IMG/VR virus record: IMGVR_UViG_3300046373_000136
Coordinates: 14,155-78,154 of that record
Length of the DNA: 64,000 nt
Reading direction: 5' to 3' (one strand)
DNA from: a virus
Shown here: positions 16,803 through 36,048 of the stretch, piece by piece
How positions within the stretch are numbered: the stretch's first letter is position 1
Layout: every line of letters begins with the position of its first letter
The notes under the pieces: model-generated
Told to the model about the DNA's origin: nothing
The model's database searches: none
What the model saw: the letters and a program-made list of their open reading frames with translations, nothing else
Position numbers and translations under genes: made by a program

Positions 16803-18977
16803 ATGAAACCCTACGAGGAAATGGAATACAACGAGTCATCCGAAGAATTGGTGCAGATTCTCTGCGCCAAGACTCAGAACAGCAACCCGCTGTTCTTCCG
16901 CATCCTGGTCGGCTACTACTTCAGCATGATGGCCTCCATGATGCGTTGTAAGATCGCTACCCATGACACCGGAGATATCCCGGTCAACATGTATGCCCTG
17001 AACCTGTCACCTTCCGGTACCGGTAAAGGCAAGTCCACCAACATCATTGAAGGCACCGTCCTGAAAGCTTTCAGGACACGCTTTCTGGAAGAAACCTTCC
17101 CACTGCTGGCCAAGCAAAATCTGCCAGTGCTGGCGACTCGTCGTGCAGCCAAGAAGAATATCGATCCCGATGCCGAGCTGGAACGAGTCGAGAAGGAATT
17201 CGAAGGCTTGGGCGAGCTGTTGTTTAGCTTCAGCGAAGCCACCAGCCCAGCAATCAAGCAGGCCCGTGACAAGCTGCTCATGGCCGATGCAGGTTCCCTG
17301 AACTTGCAGATCGATGAGATTGGTTCCAATCTCTCAGGTGCTATTGAAGCCCTGAACACCTACCTTGAACTGTATGACGTGGGTCTGGTGAAGCGCAAGC
17401 TGACCAAGAACACGGCCGACAGCAAGCGTGGTGAAGAAATCATCGGCATGACACCAGCGAACCTGCTGATGTTCGGTACCCCAAGCAAGCTGCTGGACGG
17501 TGGCAAGAACGAGGAAGAATTTTATTCCCTGCTCGATACCGGTTATGCACGACGCTGCATCATCGGCTATACCCGTGAATCGAACAAGCTCCTGGACCTC
17601 ACTCCCGAGGAAATCTATGAGCTGACCGCGAGCACCGACACCGACCTGCTGCTGGAAGACATGGGCAAGCGGTTCGAAAACCTGGCTGACATCCAAGGCG
17701 TCAACAAGAAGCTGATCATCCAACGGGATACGGTCATCACCATGATCGCGTACCGTCAGGCGTGCGAACGGCAAGCGTCAGCGTTGCCGGAGCACGATGA
17801 GATCAAGAAGACTGAAATGGCACACCGCTATTTCAAAGCACTCAAGCTGGCGGGTGCCTATGCCTTCATTGACGACTCACCCGAGTTGACCGAGGACCAT
17901 CTGTACCAGGCCATTAAAGTGGTCGAAGACAGTGGCGAAGCATTCGGCCGACTGCTATCCCGTGATCGTCCTTACGTCAAGCTGGCCAAGTATCTGGCTG
18001 AGATTGGCAAGGAAGTCACACAAGCTGACCTGACGCAAGACCTCCCGTTCTACCGTGGTGCTGTCGCCATGAAACAGGAAATGATCAGCTTGGCGATTGC
18101 CTGGGCTTACAAGCACAACATCATCATCAAGAAAGCCTTCAGCGATGGGATCGAGTTCTTGCGTGGGGAAGCATTGCAACCCACACAGACGGATGAGTTG
18201 ATCATCAGCTACAGCGAAGACATGACCGAAGGCTACGAGAACGGCACCGCTGCGTTCGAGGAACTGGGTCCGAACCTGATGGTGCTGCCCGATATGCATT
18301 GGGTCTCACATCATCTGGCCGGCGGTTATCGCAATGAGGATAACTGTCTCCCTGGCTTCAACATGATCGTGCTGGACGTAGATGGTGGCACCAAAATAGA
18401 CGTGGTGCGTCAAGTGCTTAAGCCGTACAAGTACCTGCTGTACACCACCAAGCGGCACACGGATGCAGAGCATCGCTTCCGGGTCATCATGCCGATGAGT
18501 TACACGCTGAAAATGGATTCCAAGGAATACAAGGAATTCATGAGCAACGTGTGTGAATGGCTTCCCTTTGATTCTGATGAAGAAGCCTATCAACGTGGCC
18601 GCAAGTGGCTCACCAATGATGTCGCCGGGCAACCTGATGGTGTGGCTGAGTACAACGACAACCCGGATGCCGTGTTGTTCGATGTGCTGCCATTCATCCC
18701 GAAGACCAGCAAGAACGAAGACCGCAAGGACTTAATTAAGTCCCAACAGTCGATGGACAAGCTGGAACGCTGGGTAATGAACAACATCGGTGACGGCAAT
18801 CGTAATAACATGCTGCTCCGTTACGGCATGATGCTGGTCGATTCCGGTCTTGACCTGAGTTCAGTCCAGCAAAAGATCGTGGCATTAAACGAGAAGATCA
18901 GGGACAAGCTCAGTGAAATTGAGCTGGCCTCCACCATCTTTATCAGTGTCGCCAAAGCAATAGCCAAGCGGCCATAA
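16803..18977 (+). CDS. DNA primase (N4 gp43-like)
   Basis: SPSGTGKG, DEIG, LDVDGG, HRFRV, GNRNN (PriCT-like). Confidence 0.88.
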   Translation: MKPYEEMEYNESSEELVQILCAKTQNSNPLFFRILVGYYFSMMASMMRCKIATHDTGDIPVNMYALNLSPSGTGKGKSTNIIEGTVLKAFRTRFLEETFPLLAKQNLPVLATRRAAKKNIDPDAELERVEKEFEGLGELLFSFSEATSPAIKQARDKLLMADAGSLNLQIDEIGSNLSGAIEALNTYLELYDVGLVKRKLTKNTADSKRGEEIIGMTPANLLMFGTPSKLLDGGKNEEEFYSLLDTGYARRCIIGYTRESNKLLDLTPEEIYELTASTDTDLLLEDMGKRFENLADIQGVNKKLIIQRDTVITMIAYRQACERQASALPEHDEIKKTEMAHRYFKALKLAGAYAFIDDSPELTEDHLYQAIKVVEDSGEAFGRLLSRDRPYVKLAKYLAEIGKEVTQADLTQDLPFYRGAVAMKQEMISLAIAWAYKHNIIIKKAFSDGIEFLRGEALQPTQTDELIISYSEDMTEGYENGTAAFEELGPNLMVLPDMHWVSHHLAGGYRNEDNCLPGFNMIVLDVDGGTKIDVVRQVLKPYKYLLYTTKRHTDAEHRFRVIMPMSYTLKMDSKEYKEFMSNVCEWLPFDSDEEAYQRGRKWLTNDVAGQPDGVAEYNDNPDAVLFDVLPFIPKTSKNEDRKDLIKSQQSMDKLERWVMNNIGDGNRNNMLLRYGMMLVDSGLDLSSVQQKIVALNEKIRDKLSEIELASTIFISVAKAIAKRP

Positions 18978-19862: not shown

Positions 19863-19866
19863 ATGA

Positions 19867-19889: not shown

Positions 19890-19943
19890 GCGAAAAATAT
19901 AGGGACCATTCGGTCCAAACCCGAGAAGAAGGAAACTGAACCA

Positions 19944-20413: not shown

Positions 20414-21142
20414 GTGTCCGAAGGAAATAAGAACGTCGTGCTGGTCATCGGACCACCGAACACTGGCAAGTCCACCTCACTGATGAAGCTGTCGAACCAA
20501 GACGAATTCGTCTACATGAATACGGACCTGAAGGAACTCCCATTCAAGCACAGCTTCATGGCCAGCGTCGAAGTCTCCGATCCCATTGATGTGCTCACGT
20601 ACATTGACGAGATCGAGACCAACGATGCAGCCAAAGGCGGCGTGCTTGATACCATCACCTTCCTGATGGGCATGTACGAGCGCATGTACGTGAAGACCAG
20701 CGCCGATACCCAGAAAGCCTGGGGCGGCTATGGTGACTTTTACCGTGACTTCATCCACCGTATCAAGTCCGGCACCAAGGACTACGCCATCATGGGTCAC
20801 ACCGACACCGTGTATGACGAAGTGGCCTTGCAGAACGTCACCAAGGTGCCTATCAAGGGTGCAGTCGGCAAGATCGGTGTGGAAGCAGACTTCACCACCA
20901 TCCTGTCCACCAAGCAGGTGCCCATCAAGTTGCTGGAAAAGCTGAAGATCGAAAACGATCTGCTGCACATCACGGACAACGAACGTGAAGACGGTTTCAA
21001 GTATGTCTTCTGCACCCGCGTCACCAAGGAATCGCTGGGCGAGAAGATGCGCTCTGCCATGGGCCTCTGGAACCGCAACGAGCTGTACATCGACAACGAT
21101 CTGGATCAGGTCTTTGCTCGTTTGAAAAAGTATTACGCCTGA
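20414..21142 (+). CDS. Sak4-like AAA ATPase (N4 gp44-like)
   Basis: GPPNTGKS Walker A, VLDT, GVEADF; synteny before SSB. Confidence 0.85.
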   Translation: MSEGNKNVVLVIGPPNTGKSTSLMKLSNQDEFVYMNTDLKELPFKHSFMASVEVSDPIDVLTYIDEIETNDAAKGGVLDTITFLMGMYERMYVKTSADTQKAWGGYGDFYRDFIHRIKSGTKDYAIMGHTDTVYDEVALQNVTKVPIKGAVGKIGVEADFTTILSTKQVPIKLLEKLKIENDLLHITDNEREDGFKYVFCTRVTKESLGEKMRSAMGLWNRNELYIDNDLDQVFARLKKYYA

Positions 21143-21186: not shown

Positions 21187-21927
21187 ATGTCCCTCCTCAA
21201 AAAACTCGCTACCTCCGACAAAGTTACCGTTGAAAAAGACCGCATTGGCGGTGGTGGATTCGTCCTCGATATGGACCTGTATCTGCTGAAGATCGTCCAC
21301 GCTTACATCAGCACATCGGAATCCGAAGCCATGGCCCTGAACGTCAAGTTCGAGACCGAAGACGGCAAGACCCTGCGGTCCCAGTTCTGGATGACCAGCG
21401 GCAAAGAAAAGGGTGGCAAGAACACCTACATTGACAAGAAAGGCACCGAGCACTATCTGCCAGGTTTCAACCAGGCCAACAGCCTGTGCATGCTGACCGT
21501 CGAGCAGGAAATCGGCACGATGGATACCGAAGACAAGCTGCTGGAAATCTACAACGCCGAAGCCAAAGGCGAAGCACCAACCAACGTGCCATGCCTGGTG
21601 GACCTGTTCGGCACTCAAGTCTGGGCCGGCGTCCAGAAGCAAATCGTGGACAAGACCAGCAAGGAAAGCGGCTACCAGCCAACCGGCGAAACCCGCGAGC
21701 AGAACGAAATCGACAAGTTCTTCCATGCTGAAACCAAGCAAACCCTGTCGGAAGCACTGGCCGGCAGCGAAGCCGTCTTCTTTGAAACCTGGAAGAAGGA
21801 ATTCGCTGGCAAGCCAGCCATCAACAAGGCCAAGGGTGCAGGTGTAGCCGGTGCCCCAGCCAAAGGTGGTGCTCCAGGTGCAGCCGCATCGGGCAAGACC
21901 ACCAAGCCGCTGTTCGGCAAGAAGTAA
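21187..21927 (+). CDS. Single-stranded DNA-binding protein (N4 gp45-like)
   Basis: YLPGF, REQNEIDKFF, C-terminal KPLF; synteny. Confidence 0.85.
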   Translation: MSLLKKLATSDKVTVEKDRIGGGGFVLDMDLYLLKIVHAYISTSESEAMALNVKFETEDGKTLRSQFWMTSGKEKGGKNTYIDKKGTEHYLPGFNQANSLCMLTVEQEIGTMDTEDKLLEIYNAEAKGEAPTNVPCLVDLFGTQVWAGVQKQIVDKTSKESGYQPTGETREQNEIDKFFHAETKQTLSEALAGSEAVFFETWKKEFAGKPAINKAKGAGVAGAPAKGGAPGAAASGKTTKPLFGKK

Positions 21928-22056
21928 CAGGGGAAAAGTCTCAGCATTGCTGAGCAGAGGGATCACGAAAAAGCTAAGTGCGTGCAGTTCGTCATAGCCC
22001 AAGTTTGATCCTGCATCGGGAGGATACCCCGTCATGTCAACCCACCAAGGAACTAC

Positions 22057-22377
22057 ATGAACAATGATCAAGCCATCGAAAAGATGGTAGTGGAGCAGAA
22101 GGCTACCGCTCCCCGTGTCGCTGCGGCGCACATCGAAGACATGATGAGCAAGGTGTCGTACATCACCATCGTACCGCCTGGTTCGACTTCGACCTTCGTC
22201 CACAGCTACTTCGAGAAGCGTTTTCACTTGGCCACCGGCCACAGTGGATGCGTGTCACCGGAAAACTTCCGTGCCGAGATCGGCCGTAAGGTTGCCATGG
22301 ACAAGTGCATTGAACTGACCCGTGACAAGCTGTGGGAACTCGAAGGCTGGGCACTATTCCGGAGCATGAATCCATGA
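22057..22377 (+). CDS. N4 Gp49/Sf6 Gp66-family protein (Acb4-like nucleotide sponge candidate)
   Basis: APRV...I, G.SGCVSPENF.AEIGRK.A...KLWELEGW. Confidence 0.8.
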   Translation: MNNDQAIEKMVVEQKATAPRVAAAHIEDMMSKVSYITIVPPGSTSTFVHSYFEKRFHLATGHSGCVSPENFRAEIGRKVAMDKCIELTRDKLWELEGWALFRSMNP

Positions 22378-22844
22378 TCACCGCTGACATGCAGCAATAT
22401 ATCGGAACCAAGTTACTCAAGGCATTCCCTTTGAGCCGTGGTTCGTACAATCTGTATCGTGGCTGGATTATACCCAAAGGGGAAAACCCAGATGATGAGG
22501 GCTATCTCGTTCAGTACCAAGATGGTTATGAATCATGGTCACCAAAAGACCAATTTGAAATGGCTTATCGAACGACTGAGGCTATGACCTTTGGTCTTGC
22601 AGTCGAAGCCATGAAGATGGGTATGCCCGTCAGCCGTCAAGGATGGAATGGCAATGGCCAGTTCGTTTATCTGGTTCCTGCTGCATCCTATCCAGCTCAG
22701 ACTGGTGTGGCCAAGCATTACTTCGGTGAAGGCTCCATGGTGCCCTACAACGCTTACTTTGCACTGAAGACCGTGCAAGGCAACGTAAGCACCTGGGTTC
22801 CTTCGATCAATGACTGCCTTGCAGAAGATTGGATGATCGTATGA
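22374..22844 (+). CDS. DUF2829/MW1434 (Tad2-like) protein with extra N-terminal domain
   Basis: C-half MTFGLAVEAMK.G..V.R.GWNG...WVPSINDCLAEDW; N-half YIGTK..EGYLVQY.DGYESWSPK..FE.AY. Confidence 0.8.
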   Translation: MITADMQQYIGTKLLKAFPLSRGSYNLYRGWIIPKGENPDDEGYLVQYQDGYESWSPKDQFEMAYRTTEAMTFGLAVEAMKMGMPVSRQGWNGNGQFVYLVPAASYPAQTGVAKHYFGEGSMVPYNAYFALKTVQGNVSTWVPSINDCLAEDWMIV

Positions 22845-23074
22845 CCGACAAGCAACTGGATACCTTGCTGCCCCACCAACAACGTGTGGTGCAGGAGAAG
22901 AAGGAGCTGGACGAGAAAGTTGTAGCCCTGGCCAAGTTTTTTACCACGGATACCTTCCACAACCTGTCGGCTAATGAACAGACCATGTTGCATCGACAGA
23001 TCATCGTCATGGGTAAGTATTCACAAATCCTGGGTGATCGCATTGCCCTGTTCCTGAAAGAAGTCAATGGATAA
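22841..23074 (+). CDS. crAss001_48-like helical-hairpin protein
   Basis: PHQQRVV.EK.ELDEK...L..F....F..L...EQ..L..Q...M..YS.IL..RI..F. Confidence 0.75.
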   Translation: MTDKQLDTLLPHQQRVVQEKKELDEKVVALAKFFTTDTFHNLSANEQTMLHRQIIVMGKYSQILGDRIALFLKEVNG

Positions 23075-23357
23075 TCAACCAGAACCAGTGCAGCCGAAAC
23101 CCGAGCTGATCCCCATGGATGACATGGGTGTCTTCATCGGTCTGGTGGAAGCCTGGCATGCTGCCAATATCGGCATGCTCAAACAGATGCAACACATCCC
23201 GAATGACGGCAGTATCTCTGTCGAATACGAAGGTGTGCGTGTACCCGTTCAAGGCGACATCTACAAGGGCATGATGATGGGCCTGATTGCTGCCATCGGC
23301 ATGTTCGGCCAGCTTCCATTTGCCGAGATCGAAGATGAGCCAGCCAAGGCTGATTAA
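23067..23357 (+). CDS. Hypothetical protein
   Basis: Coupled ORF, 96 aa. Confidence 0.6.
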   Translation: MDNQPEPVQPKPELIPMDDMGVFIGLVEAWHAANIGMLKQMQHIPNDGSISVEYEGVRVPVQGDIYKGMMMGLIAAIGMFGQLPFAEIEDEPAKAD

Positions 23358-23925
23358 CGTCTGTGGTATGGACCCCAGCATGCGTAGCTGGGGAATCGCC
23401 TGTGGCACATACAATCTGGACACGCACGAAGTGGTGATTACCCATGTTGAAGTGGTCAATACCGAGTCAACGAAAAGTAAGCAGGTACGGACCAACAGCC
23501 TGGACATTGCCCGTGCTGTCTTGTTGTATGAAGGTGCGGAAGACTTCTTCCGCGTAGCACAGTTCACCTTTGTCGAAGTGCCTGTGGGATCACAGAGCGC
23601 CAACGGGATGAAGGCTTACGGTATGTGCGTTGGCATTCTTGGATCAGTTCGTGCCAGTGGTTCGCAGTTCATTGAAGTGACACCAACCGAAGTAAAGGTT
23701 GCTGCCACAGGCAATAAGAATGCGACCAAGGACGATATGATCGAATGGGCCACTACCAAGCACCCCGAAGCGCCATGGTCTAAACATCATGGCAAGCTCA
23801 ACACCTCCAAGGTCGAACATCAAGCTGATGCAGTCGGTGCCATCCATGCCGGCATCAAATCCAACGCATTCAAACAATTATTGCCATATCTGGCAGCCAA
23901 TAAAGGAGTAGCACATGCAAGTTAA
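23335..23925 (+). CDS. RuvC-like Holliday junction resolvase (N4 gp46-like)
   Basis: GMDPS, FVEVP, VTPTEVK, ATK..MI, EHQADA. Confidence 0.85.
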   Translation: MSQPRLINVCGMDPSMRSWGIACGTYNLDTHEVVITHVEVVNTESTKSKQVRTNSLDIARAVLLYEGAEDFFRVAQFTFVEVPVGSQSANGMKAYGMCVGILGSVRASGSQFIEVTPTEVKVAATGNKNATKDDMIEWATTKHPEAPWSKHHGKLNTSKVEHQADAVGAIHAGIKSNAFKQLLPYLAANKGVAHAS

Positions 23926-24667
23926 TCTGAAAGAAAGCGAAATCGCCAAGGCGGTTGAACTGTACCTGAACGGTCATGGCATCAAGACCCTCGGACGTGA
24001 TGTCACCATCCAGTTCTCGATGGGCAAAGGCGTCAATGGCCTGAAGGCTGAAGTCGAGATCGAAGGCATCGATCAACCGGAAATCCCCGGCTTCCGCACC
24101 ACTGATCCTGTGGTCCTGGAAACCAAGGCTGAAGAACCTGAAGTCAAGCCGACCAAGGTCGCCGCACTGATCCAGCATCACACGGAAGAAGTGCAGCAGA
24201 AGATCGCTGCGGCTACGGCAGAAGTCCAGGCAGAGCATGTTGCTGCCATGGCTCAGGTTTCCCCGGTTGCTGAACACACCGAAGTCCTGGCCGTGCTCAG
24301 CAAGGCAGACATCGAAGCGGAAGCTGCCTTGGCAGAAGCCGAAGCGGCCGAAGCAGCTCAGGCTGACAAAGGCCCACCGTTCGAAGCAGATCAACCTGCC
24401 GCTGTAGCCGAGCCAGTAGCCGAAGCTGCACCGAAGGCCAAGCGCACGCCGATCTTCGGCAAGAAAGCAGCAGCCATGGTCGAGCCTGAACCGGCCGCAG
24501 CACCAACGACTGAGCCGGACCTGGACGAAGCCGGCGACGACAATGGATCGTTCGATCTGCCAACGGAAGGTGATGCACCAGCCGAAGCACCGGAGCCAGT
24601 GGCAGAAGTTAAGCCAACGCCGATCCGTCGCAACACGTCGAGCCTGTTCAAGAAGCCAGCGCCTTAA
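23915..24667 (+). CDS. Hypothetical Ala/Glu/Pro-rich protein (N4-like conserved N-terminus)
   Basis: MQVNL.E.EI..A N-terminus, low-complexity tail ending SLF. Confidence 0.65.
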   Translation: MQVNLKESEIAKAVELYLNGHGIKTLGRDVTIQFSMGKGVNGLKAEVEIEGIDQPEIPGFRTTDPVVLETKAEEPEVKPTKVAALIQHHTEEVQQKIAAATAEVQAEHVAAMAQVSPVAEHTEVLAVLSKADIEAEAALAEAEAAEAAQADKGPPFEADQPAAVAEPVAEAAPKAKRTPIFGKKAAAMVEPEPAAAPTTEPDLDEAGDDNGSFDLPTEGDAPAEAPEPVAEVKPTPIRRNTSSLFKKPAP

Positions 24668-24856
24668 ATGCGTATCTTGAAAGCGATAGGAGCTATCCTG
24701 TTGTGGATCATCGTCATATTCATTGTGGCGTTGATCGGCTTGATAGGCTGGTTCCTATCCACTATCGCTGGTTTTGTTGTAACCGGTGTACTGGTGATCT
24801 TGGGCATCATGATCCTCTGTTCGGGGAACAAGCCCAAGAAACCTAACCCACCATAG
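24668..24856 (+). CDS. Small membrane protein
   Basis: 62 aa, two hydrophobic helices. Confidence 0.6.
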   Translation: MRILKAIGAILLWIIVIFIVALIGLIGWFLSTIAGFVVTGVLVILGIMILCSGNKPKKPNPP

Positions 24857-24917
24857 GCAATAGAAAGGCTCCTTCAGGGGAGCCTTTCTATGACTTATCC
24901 CACATGGAGACTTACCG

Positions 24918-25599: not shown

Positions 25600-28500
25600 C
25601 TACTTGAAGACGGACATCGCACCATTCACCGTTGCCAGTTGATCCAACGTACTGAAATACCGGAACGCTCCTGTTGTGAGTGGGTTGTTGCCTACCTTCC
25701 TTAATGCAGAGCTGTCCAATACAGTTTCACCCAGTTCCCAGATATTGTCCAGAATGATCGTACCCAACACCCGTGCCGGATTCTCCCGCACCAATCGGAT
25801 CAGCACCTTCTGGATGCGCAGGAAGTACTTCATGAACGGGATGATGCCCATGTCATCCACGTATTGTAAAAGTGGATGCATCGGAATGTCATAGTTCACG
25901 AAGGCTTCACTGGCTTGCTGGATCGCTTCCTTCTTGCTCAGCGGATTCTTTTTCCGCGTCGTCAGGTGTTGATACAGCGCATACCGAGCCACGAAGTCAG
26001 ACAGTTGCGTTACCCGTGAGAGACCTTGATACAGCTTCGTATCGTGGGTCATGTAGACGTTCTTCAGCCCACGCTGAATGACCGGATGCAGGTATTGATC
26101 CATCTTCTCATCCACGTCCCGAGCAAACTTGCTCCGGTACGAATAAATGTCATCGGCTGCGGCCACATCCTCCACAATCGTTGGCATCAGGCCAGCGTCT
26201 ATCAGCTCCTTGACCGGGTTCCGGGCAATGCTGTCTTCCAGACGGGTGATTTCATCATCCAGTTCTTTCACACTCCCCTTGATGTAATCAGCACTCCGTG
26301 CCAGTTGTAGCCGTGCCAGCTTCTCGCTGTCTTTGCGGTACGCTGTCGCTCCCCGCAAAGCCACCAGATGACTGTTCAAGTTTTGCCGGAATGGCACACC
26401 GGACAAGGCCAGCAACCACATATTCGACTTGATGTTGCCGATCATCACCGTACCAGTCTTGACCACCACGATGTCCTTGATCTCCGACACCACAGCGAGC
26501 CAGCGACGTTCAAACTGACGCACACGGTGTTCAGCCTTGGCACCGAAGATTTGCGTGGTCAACTGGATCATCGCCTTGTCCATGAAGCCTTTGTCTTCCT
26601 TGTTGAAGGCATCAGCCATGGACAGCTTGCGATAGCCGAACAGGATGTTCAGGCTGTCCTTGCGTACCATCATGGCATCCTGCCCCCACACTTTACGGAT
26701 ATCCGCTTGGGTCTGGGCCGGCAGAAGATTCCAGATTTCACGCAACGAGGCATCGGCCGAACCAGCACCGATCTTGATGAAGTCGTCTGGATTGTCTGCG
26801 AAGGATTTGTTGTATTCCTCCCGCAGCACTTCCACGGCTTTCTTGTTCTGCACCGGTGTGGCTTGCTTGTCATAGACCGAACCGGCCATCTTGCCCATCA
26901 GGTGCTCGAAGCGGTTATCCCGTTCGAGGATCGAGTCCTTCGTGGACTCAGCCATCAGGTAACGCCAGTCGGTGATCCGGCCAGCTTCATTGAAGATCGG
27001 CGCAGCATGGTTATCCGAACGGTTCGACATCAGCTTCCAGGAGCTACCCTTGGTCTGCCGATCCCAGGCCGACATCGCCATGGTGGAGAACTCATTCGGG
27101 TTCTCAATCTCCAAACGGCTACCCTTGGCTCCGGTATCGGACAGCGAGAACGCACCCGTTACACGGCGGCTCAGGCCACCATCCTTCTGCACGTAGATGT
27201 GCTTGACGCCACCGTTCGGGTCCAGATTGTCTGGGTTCACACGTGGTCCTTTGCTATAGCCTTGAGCCACCAGTAGATCACCCAGCTCATTGTTGACCAC
27301 TTGAATATCAGTGTTCGGGTTGTACACCTCCGGTGTGTAGCCGTGCATCATCAATGTTGGATTACCCTTGAACAGCTTTTCCAGGGACTCCGCTTCCATG
27401 TGCTTGTGCAGCTTGAGCATGAACTCCACACCGTTCTCCGTGCCCCGGCCGTTCTCTGCCGACAGCACCGAGTTGGCCGCAGCCTTGTCTGCATCCGAGC
27501 TGTAGCCGATGCTGTACAGCGTCACCAGGGCATTGATCGTGGCTTCGCTTCGGTATGCCTGAATGTGATCGACATTGCCTTCGTACTTGGTGCCCAGCAA
27601 CCGGCTGATGTTATGGCCATTGGCATGCAGCAGACCACGAACATATCCCGTTGCCTTGTAGTAACCCAGTACTTGTGCCTGCTCGATCACGGCATCCTTC
27701 AGGCCACGATAGTTGCCCAGCTTGGCTTCCATCTCTCCAATGTGCTTGTCCAGTACAGCCGGATCAGCCAGCATCGCTTCGATCTGCTTCAGGTCGAAGT
27801 GATCCAGCAGGTGATGGGCACCCGAGCGCATGAAGATGCGGGTCACACCGGTCTTCTGTGCTTCGGTCAGCTTTTCACTATCCTTGAACCCGGCCAGGAC
27901 TGCCGCTGCACCCTGTGTGATGATGTCCTTGCGTTCACCTTCCCGAATCTTGGCTTCACGCAAGATTTCCTGGAAGACAACCAAGTGTCCACGCACCTCA
28001 GTCACCAGCGAGGCCATCACGCCTTCGCTGCTCTTGAACTCCTTGTTCCGGATGGTCTTCATACCGTCCAGGAAGTCTTCCACGCGATCATCGGCATAGA
28101 TTTTGGCAACCACACCGGCTGTCCGGATGAATTGATTCTTGCTACCGGTGAACAGCTTGGAACCAGCCGCCTTGCTCACAGCAGCACGGCCTTTCTCAGC
28201 CAAAGACTTAGCCATGTCTTCGACTGGTTCCAGCATCGCCGTGGTCACCGCATTACGTGCCAGCACTTGCTTGCTCTTAGCTTCAATGCTCACCAGTTGC
28301 TTGACCAGTTGTTCGAGCTTGGCATCAGCCCGTTGACCAGCGTAGGTACCGGTGATCTTGTCGGTCAGCAGTTCCAACATCTTCTCGAAGAAACGTTGCA
28401 GCTTATCGGCAAAGGAACCACCCGAGGCCATGGTACCGGTGTCGGTCGAGACCTTCATCAGCTCATTCACCTCAGGGTGGACCAGCGCCATGGCTGCAAA

Positions 28501-31500
28501 GCGTGCCAGATAATCCGACTGGTTCCCGTTGTCCTTGGTAGGCGTGAACAGGAAGTCATGCTGATCCTGTGGCAGCTTGCCTTGCAACAGCGTCTTGGCT
28601 TCGGTGTACAGCTTGCCCAGTTGCGCATATGCGCTCTTGGCCGCTGCATCGTGGCTGTCGAGTGCGGTCTTGATCGTCACTTCCACCTGTTCCAGTGCGA
28701 ACGCCAACTGGCTCGATACCCGGAACGGCGAAGCAATCGTAGCCGAGGCAAACGGTACGGCACCCTCTGCTTCAGCGGTGATGAACGCATCCAGTGGTGT
28801 CCCGGCCTGACTGTTCATGATCGCTTGACGCAGCGAGCCGAACTTGCCATGCAACTTCTCCACGATCCCGGTTAGCAGACCGGTGATCCGGCTCTTGTCG
28901 GCATCCGACAGGCGACCATCTTCCAGCGCATTGAAGACATCCTGCGTGCTGTATTCGGTGATGCGCTGTACTGCCATCGACAACACCGTGGCAACCTGGG
29001 ACTGTGGTCCCTGTTTCTGCTCCGCTGCATGCTTGAACAAGCCGGAAGCATTGGCAATGAGCATGCCCAGACCGTTGGTCTGCATGTCCGTTGGCGACTT
29101 GAACAGATATTTGCTGATCGTGTTGATGAACTTCTGCATGCCAGCCACCAGACGATTCTTCGTCGTGCGGCTCTCGTCCAGTTGTATCTTGCTCAGCACT
29201 TCCGTTTGGAAGTCCCGGTTGGTCAAGCCCCATGCCAGCAGCTCGTTGACTTCGGTGACGGCACCGTCGAACTTTGTCAATCCCTTGTCTTCAACATAAC
29301 CCCGTGCCACGGACAGGATTTCTTCCAGTTCCGAGACCAGTGCCTTGGCATCCCCGGTTGGATTGATCACAGCCCGTGCCAGCACACTGTGGATCAGCTC
29401 ATGGATGACCAGTTCAGGCGTCAGGCCCGAGTCCACGAAGTCGGGTGACAGTAGGTTGACTTCCTGCTTGCTGCCCTTGGCCACATACCAGCCACGGCTG
29501 GCTTCAGTAGGCATGGCCAGCACATCCCCTGCCTTGGTCTCCGGCGTGATGTAACGCACCGTCAGATCGGCCGGGGCCAGTTTGTACAGCACTCGCAGCA
29601 TGTCGGCTTGCAGCTTGCTGCTCCACCCGCCATCCTTGCGCAACATCCCGACCAGTTGCTTGATCAAGTCCTTGACCTGGGGATTCGGATTCGCTTGCAG
29701 ATAGGAAACTAATTCTGCATTCGATTCGACCACCGGGGAACCAAGCTGACCAAAGGGGGTGAATACCCCTTGGTTCAAGCTGTCAGCAGCCTGCACAAGC
29801 GATTCCACTACCGCATCCTTGTCAGCACCTTCAGGCATGGCGTTAATCGCTTCTGCGACGTTCTGGCCAGCCTCAACGGCCTTCTGCAAGTCCCGTGCTT
29901 CCTTGGTGTCGAGTTCCGCAGCGACCTGGCCCACTGCCCATGCAGCGGTTGCCGGTGTGGTCTGCGTCTGTTCGGCGGTGATGACCGGTGCTACTTGCTT
30001 CGCGGTGGCGGGTTGTACCCCCTTGACGAACAGTTTGCCCAGCGCATCAGCACTTGCTTCCATCGCTTCGGTGAGTGGTGCACCTTCGGCTTCGAGTTCA
30101 GCCAGCAGCTTCCGGGCTTCGGCCCGGTCTGCTTCGGTGACATCGTACTGCCCGTCTTCCCAGGTGTACTGGTCAATGGCGGTCATCTCTGCCATGGCTT
30201 CGAGCCGCACCTTGTTGGCCTTGAATTGCTGACCACGCAGACGCGACAGGATATGTACCGGCAGATCAGCCGGCGCTACTTCTTCATCCTGGTACAACAG
30301 GGCTTCGAACGATGCCTGAATCTGCTTGAGCACAGCCGGGGAGACATCCCCATCCTCTGCCATTTGCAGCACATTCGTCACCGAGCGTTCGAGCATCTGG
30401 AACGCTTCCGTTGCTGGGGAGAAAGTCAGCAGGGTTTTCCAGGTGGCACCATTAATCGCCTTGGCAGTTTCCCGCACCTTGTCGGCACCATTGCCAATCT
30501 CGTCATGCACGTTCATCGCTTCGATGAATTGAGCCAATGCCCGATGCATGATGGCCGAGTCAGACGAGTGCATGAAGTACGGCAGTCCAGCCGCACCGGG
30601 ACCGACTTCACGTCGTTCCATGGAGCTGGCCTTCATCGCTGTGACTGGCTTGCCTTCGGCATTAAGCACTGGTGTAGCGAACTGGGTCTTGGCATATCCA
30701 TACGGCTGTGTGCTACGACCATTGCTGGTCTTGGCCATATACAGACCGGCATTCAGATCCCCTTCGGCTTGGCTGTAGGCGGTATGTGCTTGTGGCAACA
30801 CGTGCGCTACCTTGGCATCCAGCGCCGCTTTCTGTGTGGCGTTCATGCCATGCACCGGGACACGATCAGTCGTACCGTCCTTGCGCTTAACATCACGGTA
30901 ATCGATTTCACCGGCTTCCATCAGCCGGGTCATTTCCTTGGCTTCCAGATCACGATACAGCGCATCGTAGATTTCAAAGGAAGTCTGGATTGCCTTGTTC
31001 ACTGCCGAACGCCGGGACGAGAACACTTTGAAGTAGTTGTTCATGGTCTCCGTGACCGCTGCACCCATGGTGTTATCAAAGGCATCGTTCATGCTGTCCA
31101 GACGTGCCTTGTTCTCCTTGGCATCCAGGTCCAGCACCATCAGTTGTTCGATGGTCGTGTCTGCACTGAAGGCGTTCTTCCTGCCTACCAGTTGGTTGAG
31201 ACTGTCGATCAACTGACCACGGCTTGTACTCTTGTCCGAACCATCAGCAACCGCTTCAATCTTGTCGTAGACCGACTGGATGAAGGCTTCCCGCATGGAC
31301 AGGACAGATTTCTCCACGGCTGAGCCAAAGGTAAAAGCAGTCAGCGGTGTCTTGACAATCTTTCGGCCTGCACTGGTGACCTTGTTACCACTCATCAGTT
31401 CCTTGGTGAAGGTCTGGATTGCCGTCATGGTGGCCGAGTTCGGCAAGCCTTTGAGCACATGACTGGCCAGGTCTTCGTACAGGTCCAGGCTGGCATCGTT

Positions 31501-34500
31501 TTCGTACCAGAGGTTGTAATTCTTCACACCGTCTTCGGCACGATACATCCCACCCCGATTCAAGCGTGAGAACAGGGCTTTGATCGAGCCGGCCGCACCG
31601 AGTGCCAACTGGGACAGGATCGGGCCATTGGTCTTACCGTCCACACCGACGAGCATATGTGACTCGAACGTGGCATCGCCCTTGTCCTTGGCATGCAAGT
31701 AGGTGCCGTAAGCAACGAGTGCTTGCAAGGTCTGCATCCCTTCGTTACCTGCGGCCAAGTCGGCTATCGCCTCCTTGTCCTGGGTACTCAGGGATGCCGT
31801 TTCGGGAGAAAGGGTGGCGTCATATAGCTTGGTTGCCAGCGCATCGATTCCCTTGGCCTGGACCTTCTTGTTGAAGATGTCCATGCTCTTGCTGTTGCGT
31901 TGCTGGTCCACCTTCACGCCCATGGCTTGAGCCACACCGATCAGGAATTGTTCCGCATCAGCGGTCTTGATGGTGGCCTTCCACTCCGGACGATAGATCA
32001 TGAACCGGTGAATCTTCGAGGTCTGTGGGTTCAGATCACGGGTGCTGATACCAACACGGAAGTTACGCCACACTTCGTAGTTCAGGAAGAATGGTTGTTC
32101 CAGCTTCTCTGTACTGTTGGTCAGCGCATTCGTGATCAGTCCCTTCAGGCTGAGCAACTGGTTTTCCAGGTTCAGGTTTTGGGCTTCGACGCTATCCCGA
32201 TTCTTCGCATGAATCTTGTCGTCATTGGCTTCCTTCCAGCCGGCCGCTTTCAGGATCACGTCATCCCCGAGCACGCTCAAGGCATGCCACATGGATGGAA
32301 TGATCCGGTGCGGTACCTTCTGGGCTTTCTTCAGGGTGGCAGTCTGTTCCTTGCTCACCTGTTGACCGGTGCGCTTGGCGAACTCCTGCTTGAACGGGAT
32401 CGGTGTCCAGCTCGCTTCGGTGGGTGTCTTCTCGCTGTCGAACAGCTTGTCCACCACGCCTTGCGTGTCGGCGTTGGCATCACGGATGGCACGGCTGTCA
32501 TTCGGCAGTTCCTTGCCGTCACGGACCAAGCTCACATAGGTGATCGACTTGTTGGCTTCCATGCTGAATTCCGGCATAAAGTTGGTCAGCACATTGCCCT
32601 TGAAGGTCTCGGTCTTGACCAGTTCATTCTTGCGCAACACCTGCAAGGCATGGATACCAAACGCTGTTGCCAGTCCTGGCAGGTAGTCAAGCGGGGCATC
32701 CGGCGTAGCCGAGAGGCCCAGCGCCTTGACGATACGGTCACCCAAATCATTAATGACTGCGGTCTCCATTGCCGCCACATTGCGCAAGATGGCTACACCT
32801 GCCTTGGTCATCGTATTGGCTTCACCATCCAGACCATGCATCTCCAACAGGTCAGCAGCATCTTTGCTCATCGGTGCATGGATGGTGTCGTTGATCCAGC
32901 TATACGCCCCATAGGCGATAGCCGTCACCACGTTCTCATCCATGGTGCCATCAGCATTGAAGAAGTCCTGAAGCGGGTCTTCATAGACGAACTCAGGGTT
33001 GACCTGATTGCCTTGGCTGTTCTTGATGCTGCCCTTGATCAAGAGCGCCTTGATGTCAGCCGACCACTTGGTTGCGAACTTCTGGAAGGTCGTGATCGCC
33101 GTGCGCTGCTCATCGGTCAGCCCACCGGGAAACAGGCTGTCTGGTTCCACGGTTCCGTCATTCATCAGGGTGAGCAGGTTGTTGACTGCGACCAGGGGTT
33201 TATCCCGGCCGATGTCTTCATCCTTTTCCACCTTGGCACCCTTCTGTTTGAGAAATGTTGCTGCCCTATTAATTTTTCGGTACACGGCTCCACGCTCGCC
33301 TGGCGGCAGCGTGTTCGCCTTGTCCTGGCCTTGTTGTAATACCGTCAACCCTGGCTTGGACTGAGAGTCACTTTCAGTGGAATTCTTAGTCGATAAGGGT
33401 GCCTCCGGCACCATTGGCGAGATGGATGCGGTAGACTCCGTTCCCTCAGTAGAATGCAGTGGATTTTTAGTCTTCTCAGTTTCCTGAGTTGACTTTAGTG
33501 GATTCTCAGTAGAGCTGCCGGAGGCAGCCTGAGTTAACTGAGTAGTCACAGCCGGCTGTGCAGCGGTGGACACTGCACTTGGTGAAACACCTACCGGACT
33601 TGGCGAGACTGCAACCGGTTGTGCAGGTACCGTAGGTGCTGCTTGACCAGACGTTGCAGATGCCGGAGCCGGTTGAACCGCTCCAACAGATGAGTTTCCG
33701 CTAGATACTGCTTGTGCCGATGGTAGGTTCTGGACATTCTTGGCTCCATTGAAACGCAAGTCGATAGCCGCAGCCAACTCTGCCTTGGTTGCAGCAATGG
33801 CATCAGCTTCTTTCTGGATCGAGCTGACCAGTTTTTGTGACGCGGCATTGACCGTTACCGCACCATTGATCTTTGCTTCCTTGCCTTCGAGGAAATTCGA
33901 GTAGCGAATTTCCCATTGCTTAGTGGCATCATTCTTCACCACCTGCACCGGTTTGCCCGTGTCTTGATAATCCTGGAAGGCTTCAGCCGTTAGGGTTGCC
34001 TTCTGGCTATGTGAAGTTTCGAAGTTGGTCAGCAGATCGAGACTGGCATTGGCCTTCTTGATTGAGCCAGCACCAATCGCACTAGCTACCTGTTCCCGAT
34101 ACTGGGTCAGGCCCAGGTTGGTCTTGGAACCGTCCACGATTTCCTTGGACACATCACCCAGACCGCGCAGCTCGTTTTCTGCTACTCGCGTTGCTGCGAA
34201 CTTGCGCAGGTAATCCTTCTGCGTTTCCGTGGTGGCAGGACTGTTGATCAGGGTATTGGCATCGTCTTCCGTGACACGCTTTGGCGACACCATGGAGAGA
34301 TTGATGATGTTCTCCGCTGCTTGGGCCGCTTCCGGTGCGACGGAGGCTTCGCCACCGTCTTCCGGCGCTGCCTTAGCTTCGAGTTTGGCGAGCTGGTCTT
34401 GCACATCCATGGCGGTGAAGTAGTCGGTCTGGAACCGGTCCATCACACGTTGGGCCTTCTCCACGGACTTCTTGGTACCGGACAGTTCCTTTGCCATGGC

Positions 34501-36048
34501 CTTTGCTTCCGGCGTGGTTTTGTCTTCCAGTGCGTCATACGCATCGGACTTGGCCACATAGTCACCGTTGAACTTGGCCATGATGTCGAACGCTTCCCGG
34601 ATGTTCTTTTCCTGCACATCCGGTGTGCCATTCTCACGGGAATGCGTCATGAGTGCCTGGACGGCCTTATCCGGGGCGTAGGCAGGCGATTGCGGGTCAG
34701 TCAAGGCCGATACATCACCTGTCTCTTTCGCCGCCGTGTAGGTCTCCTGAACAGCTTGTGGCACGGGAGCCGGAGCGTCAGCGGCAGGCGACGTGCCAGG
34801 TACATGGCTAGGACTGGCCAGATGTACACCGGCTGAGAGTCCACCACCGGCTACCGCACCCAGCGTACCGCCGACATAGTTTTCTTCACCGGAGTAGGGC
34901 TTGCCCTCGATGTTGCGCTCCATGCCGGTCTGGTAGAACTCGGTACCGAATTCACCGACTGCACCTTCACCCACGGCAGCACCAGCACGACCAATCGCGG
35001 TCTTCTCAACAGCACCGGCTACCTTACCCGAGCCAGGAATCACCTTGGCACCGAGCATGAACTTGTCACCCAGTGTTTCAGCCACAGCCAGGGAACCTGC
35101 TTTTGCTGCCATGGTAGCCAGCTCATCCCCGGAAGGAATCTGACCGTTATGGGTCTTCTGGTATTCCTGTACGCCCTTGCTATAGGCTTCCATGGCATAT
35201 GCCACGTTGGTTGTCGTCATCGCACCACCGGACAGTGCAGCAGCAGCCAGTTGTGGGGTATTGGATACCACCAACTCCATTGCCGCAGTCGGGTTCTTCC
35301 AGGCAGCTTCGCCCACCGTACCGATGAGACCAGCGATCCCTGAAGCTACATCCATGGCACCGGTTGCACCACCTTTATCCCAGCCAGAGGTGATCTTGGC
35401 CATGCCATCTTTATAGCCGGCCTTGGCCGTATTCGTGATGTCGGTCTGGTTACCCTTGTGAACGATGGACGAGATGTCCGTCTGTGAACGCAGGTCTTCC
35501 CCGAACTTCAAAGCTTCATCAACCTTGGCCATGCGTTCCATGTTGGTCTGCAAGCGGCCGGTCTTGCGTGCTTCAGCCCGAGCCACTGCCTGATATTTGG
35601 ACAGGGGCCGGTTTTCCGAGATGTCACCATCTGGCAGACTGAGCAGCTTCATGTCCTCATCAGTCTGCGAGCCGTTCTTGTAACGAGCATGGGCCAGTTT
35701 CACTTCTTCTGGCACACCCTGCATTTCGGCTGCTGCCTTCAATGTCGGTACCATGTTGATGATCTGTGTACCCACCTTGGCTGTTCCATCGGCCAGTGTT
35801 GCTGCCATGTTCACCGCTTCACCGGGAATCCCATCGGGATTCAGGCCCAGCTTGCTAGTCCAGGAATCCTTATTGGCCAGGTCTTCTGCCTGCTGTGCTA
35901 CCTGATTGCCTGACGTACCATCCACCACGGATTGTAGATCAGCAACTTTCTTGTTGGCAGCACGGCCCAGATCACCGAGCTTGTCGCCTTCAGTAATGCT
36001 GCTGCCGTATTTATTGGTCAGGTAAGCGTCAAGGTTGAATTCAGACAT
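25600..36048 (-). CDS. Virion-encapsidated RNA polymerase (N4 gp50-like vRNAP)
   Basis: 3482 aa, no Cys seen; NPQTSK.HR, VDGKTNGP, RKIVKTPL, NVHDE polymerase motifs. Confidence 0.95.
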   Translation of the reverse strand: MSEFNLDAYLTNKYGSSITEGDKLGDLGRAANKKVADLQSVVDGTSGNQVAQQAEDLANKDSWTSKLGLNPDGIPGEAVNMAATLADGTAKVGTQIINMVPTLKAAAEMQGVPEEVKLAHARYKNGSQTDEDMKLLSLPDGDISENRPLSKYQAVARAEARKTGRLQTNMERMAKVDEALKFGEDLRSQTDISSIVHKGNQTDITNTAKAGYKDGMAKITSGWDKGGATGAMDVASGIAGLIGTVGEAAWKNPTAAMELVVSNTPQLAAAALSGGAMTTTNVAYAMEAYSKGVQEYQKTHNGQIPSGDELATMAAKAGSLAVAETLGDKFMLGAKVIPGSGKVAGAVEKTAIGRAGAAVGEGAVGEFGTEFYQTGMERNIEGKPYSGEENYVGGTLGAVAGGGLSAGVHLASPSHVPGTSPAADAPAPVPQAVQETYTAAKETGDVSALTDPQSPAYAPDKAVQALMTHSRENGTPDVQEKNIREAFDIMAKFNGDYVAKSDAYDALEDKTTPEAKAMAKELSGTKKSVEKAQRVMDRFQTDYFTAMDVQDQLAKLEAKAAPEDGGEASVAPEAAQAAENIINLSMVSPKRVTEDDANTLINSPATTETQKDYLRKFAATRVAENELRGLGDVSKEIVDGSKTNLGLTQYREQVASAIGAGSIKKANASLDLLTNFETSHSQKATLTAEAFQDYQDTGKPVQVVKNDATKQWEIRYSNFLEGKEAKINGAVTVNAASQKLVSSIQKEADAIAATKAELAAAIDLRFNGAKNVQNLPSAQAVSSGNSSVGAVQPAPASATSGQAAPTVPAQPVAVSPSPVGVSPSAVSTAAQPAVTTQLTQAASGSSTENPLKSTQETEKTKNPLHSTEGTESTASISPMVPEAPLSTKNSTESDSQSKPGLTVLQQGQDKANTLPPGERGAVYRKINRAATFLKQKGAKVEKDEDIGRDKPLVAVNNLLTLMNDGTVEPDSLFPGGLTDEQRTAITTFQKFATKWSADIKALLIKGSIKNSQGNQVNPEFVYEDPLQDFFNADGTMDENVVTAIAYGAYSWINDTIHAPMSKDAADLLEMHGLDGEANTMTKAGVAILRNVAAMETAVINDLGDRIVKALGLSATPDAPLDYLPGLATAFGIHALQVLRKNELVKTETFKGNVLTNFMPEFSMEANKSITYVSLVRDGKELPNDSRAIRDANADTQGVVDKLFDSEKTPTEASWTPIPFKQEFAKRTGQQVSKEQTATLKKAQKVPHRIIPSMWHALSVLGDDVILKAAGWKEANDDKIHAKNRDSVEAQNLNLENQLLSLKGLITNALTNSTEKLEQPFFLNYEVWRNFRVGISTRDLNPQTSKIHRFMIYRPEWKATIKTADAEQFLIGVAQAMGVKVDQQRNSKSMDIFNKKVQAKGIDALATKLYDATLSPETASLSTQDKEAIADLAAGNEGMQTLQALVAYGTYLHAKDKGDATFESHMLVGVDGKTNGPILSQLALGAAGSIKALFSRLNRGGMYRAEDGVKNYNLWYENDASLDLYEDLASHVLKGLPNSATMTAIQTFTKELMSGNKVTSAGRKIVKTPLTAFTFGSAVEKSVLSMREAFIQSVYDKIEAVADGSDKSTSRGQLIDSLNQLVGRKNAFSADTTIEQLMVLDLDAKENKARLDSMNDAFDNTMGAAVTETMNNYFKVFSSRRSAVNKAIQTSFEIYDALYRDLEAKEMTRLMEAGEIDYRDVKRKDGTTDRVPVHGMNATQKAALDAKVAHVLPQAHTAYSQAEGDLNAGLYMAKTSNGRSTQPYGYAKTQFATPVLNAEGKPVTAMKASSMERREVGPGAAGLPYFMHSSDSAIMHRALAQFIEAMNVHDEIGNGADKVRETAKAINGATWKTLLTFSPATEAFQMLERSVTNVLQMAEDGDVSPAVLKQIQASFEALLYQDEEVAPADLPVHILSRLRGQQFKANKVRLEAMAEMTAIDQYTWEDGQYDVTEADRAEARKLLAELEAEGAPLTEAMEASADALGKLFVKGVQPATAKQVAPVITAEQTQTTPATAAWAVGQVAAELDTKEARDLQKAVEAGQNVAEAINAMPEGADKDAVVESLVQAADSLNQGVFTPFGQLGSPVVESNAELVSYLQANPNPQVKDLIKQLVGMLRKDGGWSSKLQADMLRVLYKLAPADLTVRYITPETKAGDVLAMPTEASRGWYVAKGSKQEVNLLSPDFVDSGLTPELVIHELIHSVLARAVINPTGDAKALVSELEEILSVARGYVEDKGLTKFDGAVTEVNELLAWGLTNRDFQTEVLSKIQLDESRTTKNRLVAGMQKFINTISKYLFKSPTDMQTNGLGMLIANASGLFKHAAEQKQGPQSQVATVLSMAVQRITEYSTQDVFNALEDGRLSDADKSRITGLLTGIVEKLHGKFGSLRQAIMNSQAGTPLDAFITAEAEGAVPFASATIASPFRVSSQLAFALEQVEVTIKTALDSHDAAAKSAYAQLGKLYTEAKTLLQGKLPQDQHDFLFTPTKDNGNQSDYLARFAAMALVHPEVNELMKVSTDTGTMASGGSFADKLQRFFEKMLELLTDKITGTYAGQRADAKLEQLVKQLVSIEAKSKQVLARNAVTTAMLEPVEDMAKSLAEKGRAAVSKAAGSKLFTGSKNQFIRTAGVVAKIYADDRVEDFLDGMKTIRNKEFKSSEGVMASLVTEVRGHLVVFQEILREAKIREGERKDIITQGAAAVLAGFKDSEKLTEAQKTGVTRIFMRSGAHHLLDHFDLKQIEAMLADPAVLDKHIGEMEAKLGNYRGLKDAVIEQAQVLGYYKATGYVRGLLHANGHNISRLLGTKYEGNVDHIQAYRSEATINALVTLYSIGYSSDADKAAANSVLSAENGRGTENGVEFMLKLHKHMEAESLEKLFKGNPTLMMHGYTPEVYNPNTDIQVVNNELGDLLVAQGYSKGPRVNPDNLDPNGGVKHIYVQKDGGLSRRVTGAFSLSDTGAKGSRLEIENPNEFSTMAMSAWDRQTKGSSWKLMSNRSDNHAAPIFNEAGRITDWRYLMAESTKDSILERDNRFEHLMGKMAGSVYDKQATPVQNKKAVEVLREEYNKSFADNPDDFIKIGAGSADASLREIWNLLPAQTQADIRKVWGQDAMMVRKDSLNILFGYRKLSMADAFNKEDKGFMDKAMIQLTTQIFGAKAEHRVRQFERRWLAVVSEIKDIVVVKTGTVMIGNIKSNMWLLALSGVPFRQNLNSHLVALRGATAYRKDSEKLARLQLARSADYIKGSVKELDDEITRLEDSIARNPVKELIDAGLMPTIVEDVAAADDIYSYRSKFARDVDEKMDQYLHPVIQRGLKNVYMTHDTKLYQGLSRVTQLSDFVARYALYQHLTTRKKNPLSKKEAIQQASEAFVNYDIPMHPLLQYVDDMGIIPFMKYFLRIQKVLIRLVRENPARVLGTIILDNIWELGETVLDSSALRKVGNNPLTTGAFRYFSTLDQLATVNGAMSVFK

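Follow-up and report, generated by a model that had tools for sequence, protein, structure and literature searches.

We examined a 64,000-nucleotide stretch of phage DNA (hereafter the window; positions 14,155 to 78,154 of IMG/VR record IMGVR_UViG_3300046373_000136), and focus on four small open reading frames (ORF1 to ORF4) that lie on its plus strand between the genes for a single-stranded DNA-binding protein (SSB) and a RuvC-like protein. The record is a complete 78,154-bp virus genome with direct terminal repeats, and the phage is N4-like, of the Schitoviridae type. We conclude, with good confidence, that the anti-signalling hotspot described for N4-like phages has its cargo slot in this part of the window, and that the slot here holds three translationally coupled genes from three known families of sponge proteins, which mop up the nucleotide alarm signals of bacteria: Acb4 (ORF1), Tad2 (ORF2) and Sequestin (ORF3). 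What we observe, and what this reading is built on, is the gene structure, the family memberships, the fold of ORF1 in a model, the pocket residues that ORF2 and ORF3 have kept, and a comparative series of related loci. The fourth frame, ORF4, appears to belong with the RuvC-like gene behind it and is discussed separately.

The four frames are translationally coupled to one another. ORF1 (22057..22377, 106 amino acids) and ORF2 (22374-22844, 156 amino acids) share an ATGA overlap at 22374-22377, ORF2 and ORF3 (22841..23074, 77 amino acids) share a second one at 22841-22844, and ORF3 and ORF4 (23067..23357, 96 amino acids) have 8 nucleotides in common (ATGGATAA). These coordinates confirm the arrangement given in the initial annotation, which had described four small overlapping frames with two ATGA overlaps. 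The overlaps continue further downstream: the 3' end of ORF4 overlaps the RuvC-like gene (23335..23925, plus strand) by 23 nucleotides, and a further 11 nucleotides are common to the latter and the gene after it (23915..24667, plus strand), so that the coupled chain consists of six genes rather than four.

We begin with ORF1 and note that the Pfam matches of ORF1, ORF2 and ORF3 all exceed their curated cut-offs. ORF1 matches PF13876 (Phage_gp49_66) with an E-value of 1.4e-13 and 51.6 bits (cut-off 27) across profile positions 3-78 of 82, and the same domain is present in 30 of 30 close homologues. Chang et al. (2024) identify PF13876 as the Acb4 family; of the diverse homologues tested, eight of eight bound 3'3'-cyclic GMP-AMP (3'3'-cGAMP). 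Base specificity varies across the family, and homologues from Gram-negative hosts bind cyclic di-AMP (c-di-AMP) too. Two of the relatives of ORF1 come from well-studied phages: it is homologous to gp48 of N4, the Acb4 of that phage (E 4e-13), and to the Acb4 domain of Ab09 gp59 (E 8e-11). The N4 and Ab09 relatives bind cyclic dinucleotides, N4 gp48 binding c-di-AMP at 111 nM. An AlphaFold2 model of ORF1, made with 26 homologues in the alignment, reaches a mean predicted local distance difference test score (pLDDT) of 90 and has the Acb4 topology, with helices at residues 3-13 and 23-30, strands at 33-38, 45-52 and 56-64, and a final helix at 73-104. The N-terminal helices, the three predicted antiparallel strands and the long C-terminal helix are those of SPO1 Acb4 (9E4W), the founder of PF13876, and when the model is compared with the PDB using Foldseek the ten top matches are all chains of 9e4w (probability 0.99-1.00). 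The structural comparison with Acb4 suggested in the initial annotation therefore returned Acb4 itself as the best PDB match. In sequence the two proteins are about 20% identical and have the ENF..EIGR loop motif in common. We compared ten ligand contacts of SPO1 Acb4 (K36, F48, E49, V56, Y57, F62, N63, I66, T70 and K81) through a phmmer alignment, in which three are kept (F48 as F56, F62 as F71 and I66 as I75); the N63 contact is made through the backbone, and K81 falls outside the aligned part of ORF1. By its sequence, membership of ORF1 in the Acb4 family is certain.

ORF2 consists of two domains, an N-terminal one (residues 1-68; 22374..22577) and a C-terminal Tad2 domain (residues 69-156; 22578..22844). 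Residues 71-156 match PF11195 (Tad2-like, DUF2829) with an E-value of 2e-23 and 83.1 bits (cut-off 25). Among solved structures the domain matches ModTad2 (9eib/8v3e) at E 2e-26, SPO1 Tad2 at 2e-13, HgmTad2 at 4e-13 and SptTad2 at 4e-11. Its identity to MoTad2/ModTad2 is about 56% over 88 residues with one 2-residue gap, and the alignment runs nearly gapless through the insertion after strand beta2, the extended region of the MoTad2 clade. Of the residues lining the glycocyclic ADP-ribose (gcADPR) pocket of SPO1 Tad2, W25, N26, W73 and D79 are all kept (as W91, N92, W141 and D147). Two further pocket positions are also retained (S76 as S144, T65 as T133) and three differ (T78 is N146, D67 is Q135 and H71 is S139); F44, which closes a second pocket in SPO1 Tad2, is a threonine in both ORF2 and ModTad2. 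By these alignments, the C-terminal domain is a Tad2 of the MoTad2 clade. MoTad2/ModTad2 sequesters the histidine-ADP-ribose conjugate (His-ADPR) of type II Thoeris, and ModTad2 binds the cyclic UMP and cyclic CMP (cUMP/cCMP) of Pycsar in a separate pocket; the ligand of ORF2 is predicted by similarity to these proteins, to which ORF2 alone adds its 68-residue N-terminal domain.

A different label is attached to some proteins with this domain, and ORF2 could on that account be taken for an AcrIIA7-type anti-CRISPR protein instead of a signal sponge: PDB entries named 'AcrIIA7' and 'Inhibitor of Type II CRISPR-Cas system' match it (E 1.9e-11 and 4.3e-13), and homologues are labelled anti-CRISPR in some phage records. 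We find this hardly credible, given that the Tad2 sponges are by far the best structure matches and that Yirmiya et al. make the case for DUF2829 proteins as sponges directed against Thoeris, noting that no binding to Cas9 was ever demonstrated.

The N-terminal domain of ORF2 matches no Pfam family (residues 1-68), and its residues 4-63 align with residues 2-80 of gp68, the RyR Tad of Pectobacterium phage CB1 (BLASTP E 1e-6). The two proteins thus have homologous N-terminal beta domains, whereas the ligand-binding C-terminal domain is RyR-like (PF02026) in CB1 gp68 and Tad2 in ORF2. This sponge-associated beta domain is found in 154 phage records, ranging from N4-like to crAss-like and Clostridium phages, and PHROG profiles link it to Tad2, Acb4 and Sequestin domains; N4 gp49 has the same two-domain layout and is 40% identical to ORF2 over its full length. 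Such a distribution raises the question of whether the domain is a second ligand-binding sponge module with a signal of its own and not a mere scaffold. Various phages combine it with Tad2, Acb4, Sequestin or RyR domains, it occurs very widely and is conserved (reaching 70% identity in a Clostridium phage), and it is frequently encoded alone (Fedorova et al., bioRxiv 10.64898/2026.06.04.730250). However, the same authors report that the N-domain of CB1 gp68 on its own has no activity against type I Thoeris, and their crystal structure of gp68 shows it as a domain-swapped beta sheet for dimerisation, with the ligand in the C-terminal domain. The domain in ORF2 is moreover acidic (charge -2.5), and we consider a second binding module rather unlikely.

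ORF3 matches PF21825 (crAss001_48) with an E-value of 8.9e-18 and 64.4 bits (cut-off 24.8) across profile positions 2-60 of 61. This family has been named Sequestin; it came to light as the one found fused to Tad2 and Acb4 more often than any other, and its members, which inhibit type I Thoeris, sequester 3' cyclic ADP-ribose (3'cADPR) (Tal et al., bioRxiv 10.1101/2025.07.12.664507). The pocket residues given in that work are R8, E12, Q47 and R61 in SequestinA and R7, E11, Q45 and R59 in SequestinB, and the corresponding tetrad of ORF3 (R15, E19, Q53 and R67) has a spacing identical to that of SequestinB. All four residues are invariant in an alignment of ORF3 with KP8 gp094, the fused Sequestin of locus L012 and the domain of Ab09 gp59, the last of which has been crystallised and binds gcADPR (Fedorova et al., 2026). 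On the strength of the profile match and this tetrad, ORF3 is a Sequestin in which all four pocket residues are conserved. [quoted passage not shown] BLASTP finds no alignment between ORF3 and the Ab09 domain, so that the correspondence becomes visible only in the multiple alignment.

The initial annotation had read ORF1 as a Gp49/Gp66 (Acb4) protein, ORF2 as a DUF2829 (Tad2) protein and ORF3 as a crAss001_48-like protein of a kind that co-occurs or is fused with sponges. All three assignments held, the first through the PF13876 match and the published identity of that family, the second through PF11195 and the Tad2 structures, and the third because PF21825 is Sequestin, with published fusions to Tad2 and Acb4. 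Since the three families are correct and documented, the multi-specificity anti-defence operon proposed there is, as far as sequence allows, the best reading of ORF1 to ORF3; the part of the proposal that drew in ORF4 found no support, as we discuss below.

We now turn to the position of these genes. The region from the primase to the virion RNA polymerase (vRNAP) of N4-like phages is a gene-acquisition hotspot, in which Tad2, Tad3, Acb4 and Sequestin are carried amid the genes for SSB, a RecA-like protein, Bes1 and Bes2 (Fedorova et al., 2026). The window has every landmark of this hotspot: primase, a Sak4-like gene, SSB, a Bes1 orthologue (the RuvC-like gene), a Bes2-like gene and vRNAP. In RiverRider, Arace01 and KP8 the SSB gene directly adjoins the RuvC-like gene, and ORF1 to ORF3 are therefore cargo that was inserted at this junction. 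In phage CB1 and in the related locus L023, however, SSB is followed by a homologue of ORF4 and then by the RuvC-like gene, with no sponge among them. The earlier claim that the cassette is inserted into the core replication block is thus right for ORF1 to ORF3 and fails for ORF4, and the sponge slot is the interval between SSB and ORF4. The content of this slot forms a series. It is empty of genes in CB1 and its relatives and in L023, it holds Acb4 in L020, L021 and L022, a 79-residue frame followed by Acb4 and N-domain-Tad2 in L019, and Acb4, N-domain-Tad2 and Sequestin in the present phage; that is, zero, one, two and three sponges.

Parts of the same module are found at other places in other phages. 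Acb4, N-domain-Tad2 and Sequestin recur in this order in Klebsiella phage KP8 (gp097, gp095 and gp094), beside vRNAP, and N4 gp48-gp49 are Acb4 followed by N-domain-Tad2. Families, order and the two-domain Tad2 layout are those of the window; KP8 adds the Sequestin after Tad2 as the window does, whereas N4 has none. In both of these phages the module follows the tRNA cluster and adjoins vRNAP, while in the window it stands between SSB and the pair formed by ORF4 and the RuvC-like gene. These arrangements indicate that the module is old in the group and that its position is mobile. The hotspot of Ab09 (gp57 SSB, gp58, gp59 Acb4-Sequestin, gp60 Bes1, gp61 Bes2) has the same primase and vRNAP boundaries as that of the window, the same order of SSB, Bes1 and Bes2 genes, and sponges beside SSB. 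It differs in that Acb4 and Sequestin are fused, where the window has three separate coupled genes including a Tad2, and in that it lacks an ORF4-family gene, gp58 being unrelated to ORF4 when the two are compared.

What, then, is ORF4? It matches nothing by sequence in Pfam, NCBIfam or the PDB. An exhaustive HMMER search gives it a family of at least 143 representative clusters (E<=1e-3, clusters at 50% identity), mostly viral, whose members are about 100 residues long. Conserved in them are WH, IP.G (a turn), GD..GF..GL (a helix) and LPF motifs, the last of these preceding an acidic tail. The model of ORF4 (pLDDT 90) consists of two helices with a beta hairpin between them. Foldseek finds nothing for this model in the PDB at E<=0.001, the best rows being prefoldin-like with a template modelling (TM) score of about 0.3, and a wide search with VIA-align returned generic helical hairpins only (Z<=6), from which we drew no function. 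ORF4 has a net charge of -10, and all 61 of its aligned relatives are acidic (median -12, highest isoelectric point 5.8). Among viral proteins ORF4 matches best the gp73 homologue that Pectobacterium phage CB4 encodes, and the ORF4 profile finds CB1 gp73 with an hhalign probability of 96.6% (E 6.5e-10) at about 18% identity. A word-index search with ORF4 retrieved ORF4 itself only, a tblastn search with it across 50,697 phage records gave no match, and related-loci searches with ORF4, P0002 and P0019 found nothing. The family is patchy among N4-like phages, being absent from N4, Ab09, KP8, RiverRider and Arace01 in a search that did find its positive control.

The position of ORF4 homologues is more telling. 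In 7 of the 7 other loci found to carry one, it is the gene directly before the RuvC-like one, with the start of which it overlaps. CB1 gp73, for example, also occupies the interval from SSB to the RuvC-like gene and runs into the start of the latter, though CB1 has no sponge genes between SSB and gp73. Because the ORF4 homologue is constant before the RuvC-like gene while the sponge content is variable, we take ORF4 for an accessory gene linked to the RuvC-like one and not a piece of cargo, and it most likely works with the RuvC-like (Bes1-type) protein.

The initial annotation had offered ORF4 as a new nucleotide-signal sponge and fourth member of the cassette. The proposal has some appeal for a short protein (96 residues) with a confident fold, from a mostly viral and patchily distributed family, encoded in a sponge-rich hotspot. 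Yet the pockets of known sponges are positively charged and the ORF4 family is acidic throughout, its presence goes with the RuvC-like gene whatever the sponges beside it, no similarity in sequence or fold connects it to any sponge, and its PHROG matches include no fusion to a sponge domain. We therefore regard a further sponge as very improbable.

A somewhat stronger alternative is that ORF4 is an anti-defence or host-takeover protein in its own right, one that for example mimics DNA by its acidity or inhibits a nuclease, and no partner of the RuvC-like protein. Its strong negative charge and its helical hairpin with acidic tail would suit this role, as would its accessory and patchy occurrence in a gene-acquisition hotspot, and the PHROG families it matches are called 'Mu Gam-like end protection' (the annotation that CB1 gp73 also carries) or 'host nuclease inhibitor'. 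The label, however, found no support in tests of homology: with the 61-sequence profile of ORF4, hhalign gives probabilities of 0.5% for Mu Gam and 0.2% for lambda Gam (both single-sequence templates, with which a very distant relation could be missed), and no member of the family matches the Pfam Gam family, so that we dropped Gam as an identification. In addition, the overlap with the RuvC-like start is kept in phages whose ORF4 proteins share no more than about 18-36% identity, which speaks for a functional link, and an independent role seems unlikely to us, if a serious contender. Whichever of the two applies, we suggest tentatively, as a possibility short of an expectation, that the ORF4 family is an undescribed component of N4-like anti-signalling, either an obligate partner or regulator of Bes1 or an independent mimic-type acidic inhibitor.

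The two genes that follow ORF4 in the chain are the counterparts of Bes1 and Bes2. The RuvC-like protein (phrog_159, E 1.4e-45) is 48% identical to Ab09 gp60 (Bes1; E 6e-60), and its residues D13, E81, H162 and D165 are invariant across 39 homologues, which is consistent with an active nuclease centre of the RuvC type. The acidic protein encoded next resembles Ab09 gp61 (Bes2) and N4 gp47 in its N-terminal 80 or so residues (BLASTP against Ab09 gp61: E 1e-8, 33% identity over 82 residues). Bes1 and Bes2 each independently gave evasion of both Thoeris and the cyclic-oligonucleotide-based antiphage signalling system (CBASS), by a mechanism that is unexplained (Fedorova et al., 2026).

How would the products of this chain act together? 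Ligands, oligomeric states, stoichiometry and timing are carried over here from characterised relatives, and any role of ORF4 is likewise conjectural. A single early or middle transcript would deliver three small sponges, each a homo-oligomer, whose predicted ligands complement one another. ORF1 would form a tetramer that sequesters cyclic dinucleotides of CBASS such as 3'3'-cGAMP and c-di-AMP. ORF2 would sequester an ADP-ribose-derived Thoeris signal, most plausibly the His-ADPR of type II Thoeris, and possibly also the cUMP/cCMP of Pycsar; its N-terminal part would be a small beta domain whose counterpart in RyR Tad is a domain-swapped dimerisation module. ORF3 would act as an antiparallel dimer that sequesters the 3'cADPR (1''-3' gcADPR) of type I Thoeris. 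Jointly, the three would dampen CBASS as well as Thoeris of types I and II, and they would be followed in the chain by a module of ORF4, Bes1 and Bes2 type, with ORF4 as an acidic accessory protein acting with the Bes1 orthologue.

Several observations weigh against this reading, most of them concerning the ligands. The match between the ORF1 model and the 9e4w chains is modest (E 6e-3 to 1.5e-2, TM 0.4-0.6, the best TM being 0.5-0.6). Five of the compared SPO1 Acb4 contacts are replaced in ORF1 (K36 by P41, E49 by H57, V56 by C65, Y57 by V66 and T70 by V79), and with K36, E49, Y57 and T70 gone the exact dinucleotide is uncertain. The assignment of His-ADPR to ORF2 comes solely from the identity of about 56% to MoTad2, in a family whose ligand specificity ranges widely. 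About a quarter of the Acb2, Tad1 and Tad2 homologues tested (19 of 84) inhibited none of seven systems. Finally, the tie between ORF4 and the RuvC-like gene is purely positional. The contact changes in ORF1 and the inactive homologues would fit a picture in which ORF1 to ORF3 keep their sponge folds but bind the signals of undiscovered systems, or in any case no signal of CBASS, Thoeris or Pycsar. Against this stand the cGAMP binding of every diverse Acb4 homologue tested, the cyclic dinucleotide binding of the N4 and Ab09 relatives of ORF1, and the intact core pocket residues of the Tad2 domain in ORF2 and of the Sequestin ORF3. On these grounds we hold such diverged sponges to be quite improbable and keep to a cassette predicted to target CBASS and Thoeris signals.

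Much of what makes up this locus is already published: Acb4, Tad2 and Sequestin, their fusions, the N-domain and the N4-like hotspot itself (Chang et al., 2024; Tal et al., 2025; Fedorova et al., 2026). What we add is modest, namely the unfused three-gene stack at the SSB/RuvC junction, the series from zero to three sponges in one slot, and the observation that an undescribed acidic family, that of ORF4, is constantly coupled to a Bes1-type gene. The window provides a clean natural case in which three sponge families are stacked as separate coupled genes, with predicted coverage of CBASS, type I Thoeris and type II Thoeris/Pycsar. The graded 0-1-2-3 series shows how hotspot cargo accretes, and since sponges can trigger the sponge-sensing systems Panoptes and PanDA, a known cost, it could be used to study both sponge redundancy and the price that such systems impose. 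The ORF4 family is the only element here able to add new biology, as a handle on the unexplained mechanism of Bes1.

The remaining features of the hotspot are as follows. Its upstream boundary is the DNA primase gene (16803..18965, plus strand), whose product is 53% identical to the CB1 primase (E 1.2e-251). A Sak4-like single-stranded DNA annealing ATPase homologous to N4 gp44 is encoded at 20414..21142 (plus strand; phrog_124, E 1.9e-28; PF13479, AAA_24), and the N4-type SSB at 21187..21927 (plus strand; phrog_743, E 7.3e-71; identity to its counterpart in Escherichia phage Pollock about 50%). The downstream boundary is the vRNAP gene on the minus strand (25600..36048 in the list of open reading frames, 3482 residues), and the C-terminal 400 residues of its product are 44-52% identical to those of homologous frames in related N4-like contigs.

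Between SSB and ORF1 there is a spacer of 129 nucleotides (21928..22056, plus strand) with a hairpin of 6 bp and a 3-nucleotide loop at 21940-21954. We considered it as a structured or switching leader and rejected the idea, its minimum free energy being not unusual (z-score -0.82); an Rfam search of the spacer gave no match, and no consensus of a sigma-70-like promoter or of a terminator was found on its plus strand. In L019 the place of this non-coding spacer is taken by the 79-residue frame that lies between SSB and Acb4 (L019:3920-4159), to which nothing in the window corresponds. Nor did we find an insertion scar around the cassette, a search for flanking direct or inverted repeats having yielded only short matches at chance level.

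Some observations concern the neighbours of the cassette. The SSB ends in ..TKPLFGKK (21900-21927), and the Bes2-like protein has an internal ..RTPIFGKK.. (24440-24470) and a C-terminal ..SSLFKKPAP (24630-24667); in L019 and L023 the SSB (..TSLFA) and the Bes2-like protein (..TSLFN, ..TSLFS) share a short tail of the SLF type. A short linear motif common to the two proteins could serve for docking on the same partner. Between the primase and the Sak4-like gene, 19020-20240 encodes a ParB-like protein (280 residues; phrog_1033, E 6e-43) and a 125-residue coiled-coil protein, and it is at the place of this pair that CB1 carries its RyR Tad sponge. Between the Bes2-like gene and vRNAP are four small frames (24668-25539) of 62, 75, 80 and 83 residues, which are further hotspot cargo; none has a significant Pfam family, and the 62-residue product is clearly membrane-spanning. 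A strong terminator-like hairpin lies on the minus strand at 25574-25547, 3' of the vRNAP gene. In L019 the interval between the Bes2-like gene and vRNAP encodes a 145-residue protein (L019:6330-6767) whose C-terminus, by eye, resembles a DNA-binding motif of the H-NS type.

Other loci contain sponge domains in further combinations. A metagenomic frame with a truncated 5' end (L015:3-512) contains Acb4 and, by eye, a RyR-type repeat, and would be an Acb4-RyR fusion. A 203-residue Acb4-Tad2 fusion, its domains likewise identified by eye, is encoded by a temperate element beside a cI/LexA-like repressor (L013:5986-6597), and a fusion of the same two domains has been described for Pasteurella phage Pm86. 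In L012, a 188-residue protein (L012:1779-2345) joins an N-terminal domain of about 120 residues, of no assigned family, to the Sequestin domain mentioned above, and the frame that follows (L012:2390-3295, 301 residues) has Acb4 at its C-terminus and an N-terminus like two transmembrane helices; it could be a membrane-anchored Acb4 or merely an over-long call of the frame.

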